Shown: positions 2,433 through 57,263 of the stretch, piece by piece
How positions within the stretch are numbered: the stretch's first letter is position 1
Layout: every line of letters begins with the position of its first letter
Source: Escherichia coli
Lineage (GTDB): Bacteria > Pseudomonadota > Gammaproteobacteria > Enterobacterales > Enterobacteriaceae
DNA length: 64,000 nt
Assembly: GCF_017348835.2 (NCBI RefSeq)
Contig: NZ_CP071375.1
Reading direction: 5' to 3' (one strand)
The notes under the pieces: model-generated
What the model saw: the letters and a program-made list of their open reading frames with translations, nothing else
The model's database searches: none
Told to the model about the DNA's origin: nothing
Made by a program: the position numbers and the translations under genes

Positions 2433-3722
2433 ATGGAAACGACTCAAACCAGCACGATTGCGTCGAAAGACTCTCGTAGTGCCTGGCGCAAGACAGACAC
2501 CATGTGGATGCTGGGCCTTTACGGCACGGCAATCGGCGCGGGCGTGCTGTTCCTGCCAATCAACGCCGGTGTTGGCGGTATGATCCCGCTGATCATCATG
2601 GCTATCCTTGCGTTCCCGATGACGTTTTTTGCTCACCGCGGCCTGACTCGCTTCGTACTGTCTGGTAAAAACCCGGGCGAAGACATCACCGAGGTTGTAG
2701 AAGAACACTTTGGTATTGGCGCAGGTAAACTGATTACCCTGCTCTACTTCTTCGCTATCTACCCGATCCTGCTGGTTTATAGCGTGGCAATCACCAATAC
2801 CGTTGAAAGCTTCATGTCTCACCAGCTGGGTATGACGCCACCGCCGCGTGCGATTCTGTCGCTGATCCTGATCGTGGGTATGATGACCATCGTTCGCTTC
2901 GGTGAGCAGATGATCGTTAAAGCGATGAGTATTCTGGTATTCCCGTTTGTTGGCGTACTGATGCTGCTGGCTCTGTACCTGATCCCGCAGTGGAACGGCG
3001 CAGCACTGGAAACGCTGTCTCTGGACACTGCATCTGCAACCGGAAACGGTCTGTGGATGACCCTGTGGCTGGCAATTCCGGTAATGGTGTTCTCGTTCAA
3101 CCACTCTCCGATCATCTCTTCTTTCGCCGTTGCGAAGCGTGAAGAGTACGGCGATATGGCAGAACAGAAATGCTCGAAGATCCTGGCATTCGCACACATC
3201 ATGATGGTGCTGACCGTAATGTTCTTCGTCTTCAGCTGTGTACTGAGCCTGACTCCGGCAGACCTGGCTGCGGCTAAAGAGCAGAACATCTCGATTCTGT
3301 CTTACCTGGCTAACCACTTTAACGCACCGGTTATCGCGTGGATGGCTCCGATTATCGCGATTATCGCTATCACCAAATCCTTCCTCGGCCACTACCTGGG
3401 CGCACGTGAAGGCTTCAACGGTATGGTGATTAAATCTCTGCGTGGTAAAGGTAAGTCTATCGAAATCAACAAGCTGAACCGTATCACTGCGCTGTTCATG
3501 CTGGTAACGACCTGGATTGTTGCCACCCTGAACCCGAGCATCCTGGGTATGATTGAAACCCTGGGCGGCCCAATCATCGCGATGATCCTGTTCCTGATGC
3601 CGATGTACGCAATTCAGAAAGTACCGGCAATGCGTAAGTACAGCGGTCACATCAGCAACGTATTCGTTGTCGTGATGGGTCTGATTGCAATCTCCGCAAT
3701 CTTCTACTCTCTGTTCAGCTAA
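2433..3722 (+). CDS. sdaC: Serine:H+ symporter SdaC (HAAAP family), 429 aa
   Basis: 429-aa polytopic membrane ORF; sequence and length match E. coli SdaC; followed by sdaB as in the sdaCB operon. Confidence 0.95.
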
Positions 3723-29600: not shown

Positions 29601-30208
29601 CCTTGCAGATAACGATTAATATCGCGCAGCAACGCCTGCGGCCCTTTCCAGGTTTCAAAGACGACCTGGGCTATTTCACGCGGCAGCGGGTAGCAGTGGC
29701 GACGCCAGAAATCGGCGCAGGCCTGGTAGCGTAGCAGAGACTCATCTTCAATCAGCTGCTGCTCAAACAGCATGCCGGATTCAAAGGCATTCAGGTTGAG
29801 CATGCGCTGGCAAAAGCCGTGAATAGTAAAGACTGCCGCTTCATCCATCTGCCGTTCGGCTAACAACAACCACTGCGCGGCTTGCGCTTTATCGTCGATC
29901 TCTTCCAGCAGGCGTTCGTACAGTGGATTGTCGGTGGTTTCACGCAGACAGGCGATGCGCAACTCGTGGATATTGCTACGGATACGACCGCGCAATTCTG
30001 CCGTGGCAGCCTCGGTAAAGGTGACCACCAGCAGTTCTTCAACGGTCAGCGGGCGGGGAAAGGCGGCGGAACCGCCTAGTCCAAGTAACAGGCGCAAATA
30101 GAGCGCCGCAATCGTAAAGGTTTTGCCTGTGCCGGCAGAGGCTTCAATCAGGCGCTCGCCCTGTAAGGGCAAGCGCAAAGGATCTAGTGTCTCGGCGACA
30201 TCACTCAT
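26666..30208 (-). CDS. recB: RecBCD enzyme subunit RecB (helicase/nuclease), 1180 aa
   Basis: Start at 30208 gives [30 protein letters not shown] (UvrD-like helicase motif I); length 1180 aa; C-terminal nuclease domain present. Confidence 0.95.
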
Positions 30209-33089
30209 TCTTTTCACTCATCAGGGGCATTGTTTGCTGCAACGCGCTGACGTTCTCCCACACTTTCCAGCCTTCAGGATGCACATATTCGGCTTTCCCG
30301 TTCTGGCTGCCGGAAATCTGCGACAGAATAGCCATGCCTTGCGGCTCGACCACCGCCTGATGGAAGAAATCAGCAAGTTTTTGCGGCGTCAGCAGTTTTA
30401 TCTGGGCCACGATTTTATCACGCGAATCGAAGCGCATATTGCCGCGATCGAAATCTTTACTTAACTTCGATGCTTCTTCGCCGAGCGTTTGCGGTGCCTG
30501 CAGCATCTGGGTAATTACCGCCTGCTGGATTTGCGCAAACTCATCTGGCTTCATCGCCCGCAATTTTGCCTCTGCGGTTGGGAAAAACGCCTTGTAACGC
30601 TCCCACAAGAATGAAGGCTGTTTATCATTGCTTTGCAAAAGGAAGCCCATGCCCCACTGACGCCCCACGCTCATTGGAAACGCAAACACGGCATAGCCCA
30701 ATTGTTCTTCGGTACGCAACTGATTGTAGAACCACGGCTGTACGATCTGCCCCAACAGAGAGCTATAGGCTGAGCTGGTGTATTCATCGTAGCCAGTCGG
30801 TACAAATACCGCTGCCAGTGCGGAGTCGGTGCTGTTACCGGCTTTTTCAAAGATGACGGATTGTTTTTTATCGACCACTACATCTTTGTTTCGACACCAC
30901 TCTGAACCATCAGCGCCCAACTGTTTTTGCACATCGCGTGCCAGCGTTGTTGCCTGGGCCTCGGTCATGTTGCCGATAACCATAAACTCTGGTCGAGCCC
31001 CTGATTTTAAGGCGTCGCGATAGGCCAGCACCTCTTTCAACGTAATGGAGGGCAAAATTTTACGCCGTTCATCTCGCGAGAAGTACGGCACTTGCGAGAG
31101 CATCTGCGCGGGCATAATCGCCTGCTCAAACGCTTTACCCTTTTCTGCGGAATCCATCATCTGGTTATACCAGGACTTCGCCTGCTCAAGCTGATCTTCC
31201 GTAGCGGTATAGCTAAAGTACCCCTCGAGCAATGCCTGGAACAGCTGCGGCAGACGCTGGGTGTAACCATTAGCATTAACCATAAGGCCGTTGTTAGCGT
31301 TGGTGGAAAAACTTATGCCACCAACCGACGCCTGGTTGCTTAACTGACCAAGCGCCAGCCCTGCGAGATAATCATTGAGCGCAAACATCACCTGATTGCG
31401 GGCGCTGTCCATGGCTTTCGGATTACGCAAAATCAGGCTGACATCAGCTTTGGGTTCGCTGGAAAAATAACGGCTTGGCGCATACACCACGCGCAGATTC
31501 GACTCATCAACAATCAGCTCTGGATGGTCATATTTCTTCTCTGACTTAATCAGCGAGAAATCGTCAGGAATATAGGGGTTAAGCTCCGGTAAGGAGAGCG
31601 CAATATTGGCAGCTTTTTGCTGCCAGTCAGCGAAAGTTTGTGCGCTAATTTTATCGACCTGATACGGCGCATCGACAAAATAAGCCGTTTTATTGTGCGG
31701 CTCTTTCGGGCTGATATACCAGATACGCGCATTCTGCGGCGTCATCATCGCCAGACGTTCCTTTACTGCTTTAGCATCGTACCGATCGGCAATATTGACT
31801 GCATCCAGCGTATGCTCAACAGGAACGCGAATCATAGTATCTGCCAGCCATTCGACGTAATCCATATCACGGGTGATTGACGGATAACGGAAGTCGATAT
31901 CCAGCACATTCGCCAGTTCATCGAAGTATTGTTTATCGATCCCTTTTTCACGCAACAGATTGAGGTAGCTAAAAATGGCCGCCACAACCTGATCACGATT
32001 CGCCAGACCTTTATCGGTTAAAGACGCAGAGATCGCTAATACGCCGCTGTTGCCGTTGACGATAGGATCGGAGTTGGCGCTAATGCCCTCAACTAATCCC
32101 TGCTTTTGCAGCCAGTCAGAAAGTGTACCTGGGCTGCGATTGCCAATCAGATAGGTAATCAATTCATCGGTTTTACTACGGAACTTCGCTGAGTTGTTAT
32201 CGATGCGAAACTCAACGCGCAACACTTTACGCGGCAGCGCAGGGACGTAATGAATGATAATGCCCTTTTGCGCGTCGGTGACTACCGGCACGGTGATTTC
32301 CGGTTTTTTGCTCTCTTTGTTCGGCACGCGACCAAAGGTGTCCGCCGCCATTTTTGCCAACTCCGGCAGCGGTTTATTACTGTAAATAACCGCCTTCATC
32401 AAATTGGCGGAATAGTACTTCTCGTGGAAATCTTTCAGCGCCTGCTGCACCGGATTACCAGGTTTGTCGCTTAAAGTTTCGAGGTTACCACCAGAAAACT
32501 TTGAACCGGGGTGTGCCGGGTTAATGGTTTCTGCGCTGACCTGTGCCATGCGCATCCCGTCACGCGTACGCGCCATGGTTAATTCAGCGTTCACTGCATT
32601 ACGCTCACGTTCGGCGTATTTCTTGTCGAGCAAGGGTTCTGCAATAGCATCGGCCAGGCGGTCTACCGCACCGGGCAAGGCGTCGTTCTCAACTTCCAGA
32701 TAGAAAGCCGTGCGATACGGCGCAGTGCTGGCATTGTGACTACCGCCGTGCATTTTGAGATATTCGGCCAGACTGTCAGCCTGCGGGTACTTTTTCGACC
32801 CCATCAGACTCATATGTTCAAGGTAATGTGCCAGCCCCTGGTACGCCTCGGGATCTTCCAGCGACCCAACGGGCACCACCAGCGCCGATAGCGATTTAAC
32901 TGCCTGCGGATCAGAAACCAGCAAGACCACCATACCGTTATCCAGACGTATAGCCTGATACTGGCGGTTATCTTTATCACTTTTACGGATGGTTTCCTGA
33001 ATCGGCTGCCATCCCGTTTCTGCCTGACTTAAGGGTGCCCAAAGGGCAACTAACAACAATAATGCTTTGAACCAGGTGCTGCGGGGCAT
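30201..33089 (-). CDS. ptrA: Protease III (pitrilysin), periplasmic M16 zinc metalloprotease, 962 aa
   Basis: 962-aa ORF with signal peptide and inverted zinc motif HYLEH; matches PtrA; sits between recC and recB. Confidence 0.95.
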   Translation of the reverse strand: MPRSTWFKALLLLVALWAPLSQAETGWQPIQETIRKSDKDNRQYQAIRLDNGMVVLLVSDPQAVKSLSALVVPVGSLEDPEAYQGLAHYLEHMSLMGSKKYPQADSLAEYLKMHGGSHNASTAPYRTAFYLEVENDALPGAVDRLADAIAEPLLDKKYAERERNAVNAELTMARTRDGMRMAQVSAETINPAHPGSKFSGGNLETLSDKPGNPVQQALKDFHEKYYSANLMKAVIYSNKPLPELAKMAADTFGRVPNKESKKPEITVPVVTDAQKGIIIHYVPALPRKVLRVEFRIDNNSAKFRSKTDELITYLIGNRSPGTLSDWLQKQGLVEGISANSDPIVNGNSGVLAISASLTDKGLANRDQVVAAIFSYLNLLREKGIDKQYFDELANVLDIDFRYPSITRDMDYVEWLADTMIRVPVEHTLDAVNIADRYDAKAVKERLAMMTPQNARIWYISPKEPHNKTAYFVDAPYQVDKISAQTFADWQQKAANIALSLPELNPYIPDDFSLIKSEKKYDHPELIVDESNLRVVYAPSRYFSSEPKADVSLILRNPKAMDSARNQVMFALNDYLAGLALGQLSNQASVGGISFSTNANNGLMVNANGYTQRLPQLFQALLEGYFSYTATEDQLEQAKSWYNQMMDSAEKGKAFEQAIMPAQMLSQVPYFSRDERRKILPSITLKEVLAYRDALKSGARPEFMVIGNMTEAQATTLARDVQKQLGADGSEWCRNKDVVVDKKQSVIFEKAGNSTDSALAAVFVPTGYDEYTSSAYSSLLGQIVQPWFYNQLRTEEQLGYAVFAFPMSVGRQWGMGFLLQSNDKQPSFLWERYKAFFPTAEAKLRAMKPDEFAQIQQAVITQMLQAPQTLGEEASKLSKDFDRGNMRFDSRDKIVAQIKLLTPQKLADFFHQAVVEPQGMAILSQISGSQNGKAEYVHPEGWKVWENVSALQQTMPLMSEKNE

Positions 33090-52954: not shown

Positions 52955-53025
52955 AATAAAAAATATCGATTTATGTCGAGTCTATGCAAAAATGATATGG
53001 ATTACCGGATTGCGAGAGAGCGCTA

Positions 53026-54768: not shown

Positions 54769-56187
54769 TCAGACGCCGATATTTCTCAACTTCTCGCCTG
54801 CCATCAGTTTGCGTTCGATATGTTCCAGGGTGACATTTTTGGTTTCCGGAATGAGCCAGAAAGTGATGCCCACAAACGCAATGTTCAGCGCAGTGTAGAG
54901 CCAGAACGTACCGGCAGCGCCAATGCTGTCGAGCAGCGTCAGGAAGGTCGCGCCGATAATCATATTCGACACCCAGTTCGTGGTGGTCGAACAGGTAATA
55001 CCGAAATCGCGGCATTTCAGCGGCTGAATTTCAGAGCACAGGATCCACACCACTGGCGCGGCGCTCATCGCATAACCGGCAATACACATCATCGTCATGC
55101 CAACAGAGAGCCAGGACAAGCCACTGGAAGCCGTACCGTTATCAAACTGCATCAGGCAATAGCCCAGCACCAGAGTGCCTAACGCCATCACGCTGAAACC
55201 AATTTTCAGAGCCGGTTTACGACCTGCTTTATCTACCGTAAACACCGCAATGAAGGTCGCGAACATAAAGGTCAGCCCCACGACCAGAGTCGCAATCATC
55301 TGTTGTTCTGTGGTCGTAAAGCCCGCCATTTTGAAGATACGCGGCGCGTAGTACATGATGATGTTCATACCGGTAAACTGCTGCATCGCCTGCAACAACA
55401 TACCGAGAAACACAGCACGACGGACGTTACGGTTGATCTTAAACAGTGCCCAACCGCCCTGTTTTAACTTCAGGCTTTCACGAATTTCGTTGAGTTCTTC
55501 TCGCGCTTTTTCCGACGTATCGCGCAGCATACGCAACACTTCTTCCGCCTCAATATGACGCCCCTTTTCCGCCAGCCAGCGCGGGCTATTTGGCAGGAAG
55601 ACCACCAGAATAATCAGCAGGACTGCTGGTAAAGCAAGAACCCCCAACATTGCGCGCCAGTTACCGCTATAACTGAACGCTGTATCGGATAAAAACGCCA
55701 GCACAATGCCGAGTGTGACCATCAACTGGTACATGCTGATCATCTTACCGCGAACGTTTTCACTTGCCATTTCAGAAAGATACAGAGGAGCGGTGTAAGA
55801 CGCGATCCCGACAGCAATGCCCAGCACCACACGAGCGGCGATTAACATCTCTACGCTGGTCGCAAAAGCGGACCCTATCGAACCGAGTACAAACAGGATG
55901 GCCCCCGCCATCAGGCTGTATTTGCGCCCCAGGCGGAACGACAGCCAACCATTAAACAGCGCACCAATTGCTGCACCGAGCATCATGCTACTGACCACCC
56001 ATTCCTGCAAACGACTGGTCAGCACAAAGTGATCGGTAATGAACGGCAACGCTCCGGCGATTACGCCGATATCAAGACCAAATAACAATCCTGCGACCGC
56101 AGCAGCTACCGAAACAAACATATTCATACGCCGCGTATCCCGCAAAGAACGTGGCGTTAAAGCAGATTCCGTATTGATAGTAACCAT
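54769..56187 (-). CDS. araE: Arabinose:H+ symporter (MFS sugar porter), 472 aa
   Basis: Start at 56187 gives [30 protein letters not shown]; 472-aa product matches AraE. Confidence 0.95.
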
Positions 56188-56246
56188 TTTTTCCTGCCAG
56201 CAGAGAGTAAGACATAGTGAAAAAATACGTGAACAACTCACACAGG

Positions 56247-56285
56247 TGTCAGGTCGGAAACAGCATAAATATGGATTAAATTGCT
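56247..56285 (-). promoter_or_regulatory. AraC binding site (araI1/I2-like direct half-sites) of the araE promoter
   Basis: Minus-strand AGCAATTTAATCCATAT-TTAT-GCTGTTTCCGACCTGAC closely resembles araBAD I1 (TAGCATTTTTATCCATA) and I2 (…CCTACCTGAC); lies about 60-100 bp upstream of the araE ATG. Confidence 0.55.
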
Positions 56286-56455
56286 GCGACATGTCGTTAT
56301 GTGATGGATATTCCAATTTTCAAATTAAGTTGAATTATTGAGATTATTATTAACTACCTAATTTTACAGCAGATAAAATTCATAAAGTTCATTAATTGAT
56401 AATTGATATGGATTACTTCATAACCATGATATGGATTATGATGATCTACAGATAT

Positions 56456-56479
56456 AAAAAACCCTGCCATGCGGCAGGG
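56456..56479 (-). terminator. Rho-independent terminator downstream of kduD
   Basis: Seen in sequence: CCCTGCC-ATGC-GGCAGGG hairpin with a T6 run on the minus strand (plus-strand A6 at 56456-56461). Confidence 0.6.
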
Positions 56480-56501
56480 TCATAAAAGTAAGAAGAATGA
56501 A

Positions 56502-57263
56502 TTAACGCGCCAGCCAACCGCCATCCACGGCAATGGTATAACCATTCACATAATCTGAAGCGCTGGAGGCAAGGAACACTACCGGCCCCATCAGATCACT
56601 CGGCAGTCCCCAACGGCCAGCTGGAATGCGGTCGAGAATTTCCGCGCTACGTTGTTCATCTGCCCGTAGTTGTTGAGTATTGTTGGTCGCCATGTAACCC
56701 GGAGCTATCGCATTAACATTAATGTTGTGTTTAGCCCATTCGTTCGCCATCAAACGCGTCACGCCCATCACACCGCTTTTTGATGCGGTATAAGAAGGCA
56801 CACGGATCCCGCCCTGGAAGGAGAGCATTGACGCGATATTGATAATCTTGCCGCCATTGCCTTGCGCGATAAAGTGTTTCGCCGCTGCCTGAGACATGAA
56901 GAATACGCTCTTGATATTCAGGTTCATGACATCGTCCCAGTCTTTTTCGCTGAACTCGAGAGCATCTTCGCGGCGAATCAATCCGGCGTTATTCACCAGG
57001 ATATCAATATGACCAAACTCAGCTACCGCGCGATCCAGCAGTGCTGGAATGCCATCAATCTTTCGCAGATCGGCGGTCAGGCTTAAAAAACGACGCCCCA
57101 GCACCGTGACCTGCTTGATGGTTTCAGTCGGTTCAACGATGTTAATGCCAACAATGTCACAGCCCGCTTGCGCCAGCCCCAACGCCATCCCCTGGCCCAG
57201 TCCAGTATCACAACCAGTGACGACCGCAACTTTACCTTCGAGAGAAAATGCACTTAAAATCAT
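56502..57263 (-). CDS. kduD: 2-dehydro-3-deoxy-D-gluconate 5-dehydrogenase (SDR), 253 aa
   Basis: 253-aa short-chain dehydrogenase ORF (GxxxGxG, YxxxK); matches KduD. Confidence 0.95.
   Translation of the reverse strand: MILSAFSLEGKVAVVTGCDTGLGQGMALGLAQAGCDIVGINIVEPTETIKQVTVLGRRFLSLTADLRKIDGIPALLDRAVAEFGHIDILVNNAGLIRREDALEFSEKDWDDVMNLNIKSVFFMSQAAAKHFIAQGNGGKIINIASMLSFQGGIRVPSYTASKSGVMGVTRLMANEWAKHNINVNAIAPGYMATNNTQQLRADEQRSAEILDRIPAGRWGLPSDLMGPVVFLASSASDYVNGYTIAVDGGWLAR

Follow-up and report, generated by a model that had tools for sequence, protein, structure and literature searches.

Two conserved TCCATA elements upstream of araE in the Enterobacteriaceae as candidate araO2-type half-sites for AraC

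The araE gene of Escherichia coli, whose promoter has long been regarded as simply activated by AraC and CRP, was analyzed here within a stretch of genomic DNA of 64,000 nucleotides (RefSeq assembly GCF_017348835.2, contig NZ_CP071375.1), referred to below as the window. With the K-12 annotation mapped onto it, araE occupies positions 54769-56187 of the minus strand, with its ATG at 56187, kduD lies at 56502-57263 on the same strand, and lysA, lysR and ygeA are found to the left of araE. The 314-bp spacer between kduD and araE constitutes the regulatory region of araE. On the strand of araE, it comprises the kduD terminator, two distal elements designated D1 and D2 (D1 starts approximately 14-25 nt downstream of the terminator), an AT-rich stretch of about 100 bp, a CRP-type site, the AraC half-site I1, the half-site I2 overlapping the -35 region, a -10-like TATTTT and the ATG (Table 1). 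The segment 56100-56600 is 100% identical in strain PE164, and of the other 5,423 genomes that match it, nearly all are 95-99% identical; in 27 of the 5,423, no single match spans at least 80% of the 501-bp query. In E. coli EC6 (NZ_CP182398.1), a frameshifted IS5-family transposase interrupts the interval from the distal repeats to the core promoter of araE (positions 2822-3627 of that locus, with the break at approximately 56361 of the window), a natural variant that parts the repeats from the promoter.

Table 1. Features of the araE regulatory region, in window coordinates
Feature	Sequence	Coordinates	Strand	Remarks
kduD intrinsic terminator		56460-56481	-	nine-pair hairpin and subsequent T run; boundary of the araE regulatory region
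D1, outer distal half-site candidate	GATCATCATAATCCATA	56430-56446	-	core TCCATAT at 56429-56435
D2, inner distal half-site candidate	TTATGAAGTAATCCATA	56407-56423	-	core TCCATA at 56407-56412
IHF-like motif, tentative	AATTAGGTAGTTA	56351-56363	-	one mismatch to the consensus WATCARNNNNTTR
CRP-type site	TGGAATATCCATCACA	56300-56315	-	conserved as AAAnTGnAATnTCCATCACA
AraC half-site I1	CAGCAATTTAATCCATA	56270-56286	-	AGC-N7-TCCATA invariant across loci
AraC half-site I2, overlapping the -35 region	..TTTCCGACCTGACA	56247-56265	-	CTGACA at 56247-56252; CCTGAC conserved
-10 region, inferred	GTATTTT	56222-56228	-	conserved TA.TTTCA block; spacing copied from pBAD

The original prediction, made from the letters of the window, drew attention to an 11-mer, GATATGGATTA, repeated in direct orientation upstream of araE. 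Both copies are indeed found at 56405-56415 and 56428-56438, and the repeat is exact over one further base (TGATATGGATTA, at 56404-56415 and 56427-56438, 23 bp apart). Its 10-nt core, ATATGGATTA, recurs at 56269-56278 within I1, as had been noted, and the further copy reported between lysA and lysR is present as well, with the core at 52995-53004 and not one base earlier at 52994-53003; this copy is in fact the full 11-mer (52994-53004). A fifth copy of GATATGGATTA, absent from that account, lies at 31858-31868 on the minus strand, inside an open reading frame of 962 amino acids (30201-33089, minus strand), and was set aside as a coincidence within coding sequence. The core occurs five times in the window against 0.16 matches expected, a count reached in none of 100 shuffles. 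When the segment 56190-56500 was shuffled 5000 times with dinucleotides preserved, a 10-mer was found three times in 3 shuffles and a 12-mer twice in 40. The bare hexamer TCCATA, on the other hand, is common in the window (32 matches versus 22.6 expected), so that conservation, rather than the statistics of a single genome, has to be the main argument. Nor is the long repeat itself the element: identity over 11-12 nt is specific to Escherichia, and in K-12 the bases flanking the promoter-proximal copy already differ (AATAATCCATATT), which reduces the repeat there to ATAATCCATAT; the constrained part is only TCCATA(T). An origin of D1 and D2 by tandem duplication was rejected, as the likeness stops after the 12-mer and other genera share the hexamer only.

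The copy between lysA and lysR was likewise rejected as a related site, since it belongs to a different conserved block, GTCTATGCAAAAATGATATGG, with a coincidental likeness to the araE repeats that is specific to E. coli. The block (52975-53004) closely precedes lysR in Escherichia, Salmonella, Citrobacter and Superficieibacter; its hexamer reads TATGGG in Salmonella and one Citrobacter, and its ATTA part is unconserved. From its sequence, it is probably the lysR promoter, with an extended -10-like TGnTATGGn.

A scan anchored on AraE yielded 80 loci, and the arrangement of four motifs was assessed in 59 sequences that represent 17 named genera (Escherichia, Salmonella, Citrobacter, Pseudocitrobacter, Klebsiella, Raoultella, Kluyvera, Enterobacter, Huaxiibacter, Kosakonia, Superficieibacter, Lelliottia, Leclercia, Siccibacter, Pseudescherichia, Pseudenterobacter and Phytobacter). 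Throughout the 59 loci, TCCAT is present on the same strand at four fixed places relative to the araE ATG, namely at -248 (D1), -225 (D2), -121 (internal to the CRP-type site) and -88 (I1), and D1 and D2 thus share the orientation of I1. At D1, TCCATA is found in 57 of 57 unique contexts, with T as the next base in 55 of them and A at position 2 of the half-site in 47; at D2, TCCAT is present in all 54 unique contexts, with a sixth base that is A in 47 and G in seven. The cores of D1 and D2 show mean pairwise identities of 0.99 and 0.96, respectively; the CRP site reaches 0.89 and the 17-mer of I1 0.77. Outside the cores, identity falls to 0.38 in the interval between D1 and D2, to 0.41 in the spacer from D2 to the CRP site and, upstream of D1, to 0.47. 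D1 and D2 therefore stand out as two short elements, of 6-7 bp each, in a clean phylogenetic footprint. Judged by this pattern of conservation, the distal sites are under strong purifying selection tied to araE and appear to be functional cis-elements.

The frequency of TCCATA in the window and the location of the sites just past the kduD terminator could be taken to indicate a chance or structural feature of AT-rich DNA, or a part of kduD, be it the terminator or the 3' end of the gene. We consider this very improbable, given cores that are invariant across 17 genera in unconserved flanks and whose place is fixed with respect to araE and not to kduD. The order kduD-araE is maintained across the core Enterobacteriaceae, with a spacer that is mostly about 312 bp long, and two departures from it separate the two genes as possible anchors. 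In Salmonella enterica subsp. arizonae, some 150 bp of extra sequence is present beside kduD and D1 and D2 keep their place relative to araE; in Phytobacter, where a different gene lies upstream and kduD is missing, their place relative to araE is again unchanged. Because their position is fixed in these two cases, the sites are assigned to araE and not to kduD. The insert in S. arizonae, between kduD and D1, contains palindromic, REP-like segments. Searches of the locus against Rfam returned two matches only, both far below threshold, and promoter-like matches were no commoner than in shuffled sequence; a non-coding RNA and a role as an upstream promoter or terminator are thus unsupported.

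Outside this core group, Cedecea, Mangrovibacter and Buttiauxella, none of which has kduD upstream of araE, have a single distal TCCATA, 150-154 bp upstream of that of I1, and in Franconibacter the hexamer, at 151 bp, is the variant TCCATG; a distal site is also present at 132 bp in one metagenome-assembled genome and at 187 bp in Tatumella. No distal TCCATA was found upstream of I1 in Mixta, Erwinia, Rosenbergiella, Rahnella and one metagenome-assembled genome of Pluralibacter. As a given hexamer is expected on one strand of a 60-bp window in only about 1.5% of cases, the recurrence in distant lineages is not attributable to chance. It suggests that D1 is the older element of the two.

The proximal part of the region conforms to what is known from pBAD. 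The pair of direct half-sites next to araE that had been likened to I1-I2 of araBAD can be identified as I1 and I2 of araE: I1 is the top match of an AraC matrix among 127,968 positions, I2 follows I1 at a distance of 21 bp, the same as at pBAD, and the distance from I1 to CTGAC, and with it the geometry of the -35 region, is identical in the two promoters. If the pBAD geometry applies throughout, transcription of araE would start near 56215-56218, which would place D2 near -196, D1 near -219 and the center of the CRP site near -91.5. The proposed CRP half-site pair, TGTGA-N6-TTCCA at 56300-56315, is also present and is conserved, on the araE strand, as TGnAA-N6-TCACA; when compared with TGTGA-N6-TCACA, the window has TGGAA-N6-TCACA, the right half being invariant among loci and the left half following TGnAA. 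The site invariably lies 33 bp before the TCCATA of I1, and its placement beside I1 is that seen at pBAD. Its spacer contains TCCATC (56303-56308, GATGGA on the plus strand), which is invariant in the 59 loci, always at 33 bp from I1, and which could be a further AraC-type box or could reflect plain conservation of the CRP site, the spacer of the pBAD CRP site being likewise conserved.

TCCATA is the A-box, the high-affinity part of the AraC half-site. At araI1, the half-site has been described as xAGC-N7-TCCATA, and the pattern common to araI1 and araO2 as xA-N9-TCCATA (PMC11983282). In the window, the hexamer is exact in both D1 and D2, and across loci it is invariant at D1 and retained in 47 of 54 contexts at D2. 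The wider contexts on the araE strand are GATCATCATAATCCATAT for D1 and TTATGAAGTAATCCATAT for D2: D1 fits the xA-N9-TCCATA pattern, and D2, which has T at position 2 in E. coli, does not. The AGC B-box expected 7 bp upstream of TCCATA is absent from both, its place being taken by GATC at D1 and TTAT at D2; no conserved AGC was found in the 57 unique contexts of D1 and the 54 of D2, whereas the AGC of I1 is invariant. The B-box position of D1 carries a moderately conserved AAT; nothing is conserved there at D2, which lacks a B-box and has an A-rich run just upstream of its core. By these features, D1 is of the O2-type pattern and D2 is a candidate with the A-box only. Under an AraC matrix built from six half-sites (I1, I2, O1a, O1b and O2 of araBAD and one of araFGH, with the araE sites excluded), a small training set, D1 ranks eighth (10.0 bits), D2 236th (4.8 bits) and the lysR copy 340th among the 127,968 positions. 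The suggestion that the distal repeats are extra AraC half-sites is consequently borne out as regards the TCCATA footprint in the orientation of I1 and the xA-N9-TCCATA pattern of D1, but not as regards the AGC box or the 21-bp spacing of AraC pairs, and in the matrix scan that had been proposed as a check D1 ranks high and D2 scores weakly, again within the limits of a small training set.

With only 6-7 bp constrained per site, no AraC B-box and a non-canonical spacing, D1 and D2 might instead be direct repeats of TCCATAT recognized by a regulator other than AraC, which would provide a second input to araE. This appears distinctly unlikely, because TCCATA is exactly the high-affinity box of AraC, lies in the orientation of I1, and does so upstream of a gene that is AraC-dependent; moreover, a search of the 64-kb window for TCCATA-N10-40-TCCATA retrieved the D1-D2 pair only. 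Of the sites of other regulators that were compared (the DnaA box, the NarL heptamer and the TorR box), none fits the invariant TCCATA. A DnaA box, the consensus of which is TTATCCACA, was specifically rejected, as the core is always TCCATA and never TCCACA.

The spacing of the sites bears on how AraC would use them. D1 and D2 are 23 bp apart in 58 of the 59 loci and 33 bp apart in the remaining one, a metagenome-assembled genome of Raoultella, the difference of 10 bp being about one helical turn. Such fixed direct repeats, with two cores that are equally well conserved, would be compatible with the binding of a second AraC dimer to D1 and D2 as a separate upstream operator, comparable to araO1 or to the upstream site of araFGH and not engaged in a loop, which could raise the local concentration of AraC, buffer AraC, or aid activation in the presence of arabinose. 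We regard this as rather unlikely: the 23-bp register differs from the 21-bp one of the adjacent pairs already known (I1-I2 and O1), the AGC boxes are absent, and distant lineages keep one distal site only. The constancy of the spacing is itself weak evidence for one spanning dimer, since only about one insertion or deletion would be expected in a 17-bp spacer anyway.

Relative to I1, D2 is at 137 bp and D1 at 160 bp in E. coli. Across loci, the distance from D2 to I1 falls into two classes, 127-129 bp (13 loci) and 137-139 bp (46 loci), and takes no intermediate value; that from D1 to I1 is 150-152 or 160-162 bp. A shift by about one turn might be read as a sign of looping, but the bimodal distribution probably reflects few insertion or deletion events, perhaps one or two; the short class is essentially one clade, formed by Klebsiella, Raoultella and Kluyvera. 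A helical repeat of 10.5 bp gives D2 and O2 a similar phase relative to I1 and D1 a different one; with a repeat of 11.1 bp, neither is in phase. D1 and D2 could not be in phase with I1 at the same time. Near the center of the interval that separates D1 from I1, at 79 bp from the former and 82 bp from the TCCAT of the latter, a semi-conserved A.AT.A.....TTA block fits the IHF consensus WATCARNNNNTTR. At the same place, six Citrobacter loci and one locus each of Kosakonia and Leclercia have a perfect match, many others deviate from it by one base, and the Klebsiella/Kluyvera clade lacks the motif; in DNA this rich in AT no match in a single sequence is significant, and the motif is tentatively regarded as a candidate IHF site only.

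The explanation that we favor, with moderate confidence, sees in D1 and D2 auxiliary, araO2-type half-sites for AraC, through which apo-AraC would loop to I1, the binding, the looping and the repression all being deduced from sequence. The TCCATA cores are kept in 59 loci amid flanks that are nearly saturated with substitutions, their positions are fixed with respect to araE, and a single distal TCCATA is found in distant lineages. This explanation is also favored by the strand shared with I1, by the fit of D1 to xA-N9-TCCATA and its high rank in the matrix scan, by the similar footprint of the araO2 orthologues, and by the CRP site lying between the distal sites and I1. Classical work reportedly recognized one AraC site at araE, no looping, and no AraC-dependent repression of the transport promoters. 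This single-site view counts against the explanation, as do the ambiguous phase, distances of 137 and 160 bp in place of the 211-212 bp that separate O2 from I1, the missing AGC box, the low rank of D2 and the 23-bp spacing. In its favor, an AraC ChIP-qPCR signal has been obtained at araE in the absence of arabinose, with an amplicon that runs from I1 to the transcription start, so that the distal sites are beyond its resolution (PMC3738151). The signal is consistent with a helper contact.

According to the looping model, in the absence of arabinose one DNA-binding domain of the AraC dimer would occupy the strong I1 and the other D2 or D1, a contact reaching 137-160 bp back from I1 that would close a small loop around the CRP site. 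The loop would keep AraC off I2, so that basal transcription would be low and AraC would stay pre-bound at the promoter. Arabinose would free the distal contact, the released domain would take I2, and AraC together with CRP would activate araE. The AT-rich spacer, with the IHF-like motif at its midpoint in many genera, might provide the bending required for so short a loop. More tentatively, and as a possibility in which we place less than moderate confidence, araE would be controlled by an AraC loop formed via an operator of two TCCATA-only sites spaced by 23 bp, across a spacer of about 100 bp and possibly with the assistance of IHF; looping would then be a property of the regulon as a whole, and AraC would be able to use a 23-bp register of A-boxes alone.

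No description of distal AraC sites or of looping at araE, and no deletion analysis of such sites, was found in the full-text literature searched; key primary papers lie outside that literature, so the distal boxes may have been noticed before. If an O2-like operator does exist at araE, looping would be extended to a transporter promoter, which could account for the occupancy of araE by AraC without arabinose and would bear on all-or-none induction, a behavior that depends on the control of araE. D1 and D2 would, in addition, be natural half-sites that rely on the TCCATA box alone.

AraC is a textbook case of DNA looping, documented at araBAD/araC, and the sites at araE can be compared with several elements of that regulon. 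An AraC site additional to the activating one, and upstream of it, would have a counterpart at another arabinose transporter promoter, that of araFGH, for which an upstream AraC site (araFG2) was reportedly described by Hendrickson et al. in 1990. The sequence organization there differs, the full half-site AGCAGATTAATCCATA upstream of araF being on the opposite strand. In the K-12 sequence upstream of araFGH, AGCAGATTAATCCATA is found at approximately positions 480-500 of the locus, with a second TCCATA about 120 bp closer to araF. With araO1 (O1L-O1R) and araI (I1-I2), the D1-D2 pair has in common that it is a direct repeat close enough for one dimer. The half-sites of those pairs, however, are 21 bp apart in K-12 and have AGC-like boxes, whereas D1 and D2 are 23 bp apart and have none, and the divergent promoter that an O1-like role would call for is absent at araE.

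The comparison with araO2, where looping and repression are proven and araE offers a proposal based on sequence, is the one that the favored reading invokes. In the araBAD region of K-12, O2 (GAAACCAATTGTCCATATT) and I1 (TAGCATTTTTATCCATA) are on the same strand and 211 bp apart, and the araO2 orthologues of Klebsiella, Enterobacter, Cronobacter, Buttiauxella and Mangrovibacter read AAACCAWTTGTCCATAT, at 211-212 bp from I1. Across genera, araO2 leaves a short footprint, TTGTCCATAT, of the same kind as those at D1 and D2, and in many genera D1 contains ATTGTCCATAT, which is very similar to the footprint of the araO2 orthologues. While araO2 is a single half-site within the araC leader (211-212 bp from I1 in six genera), araE has two, at 137 and 160 bp from I1, in a spacer that is not transcribed. 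The sites at both promoters combine a perfect TCCATA(T) on the strand of I1 with a weak B-box, AGC being absent at araO2 too, and both are located upstream of a CRP site that adjoins I1-I2, so that at araE, as at pBAD, CRP would lie inside the loop.
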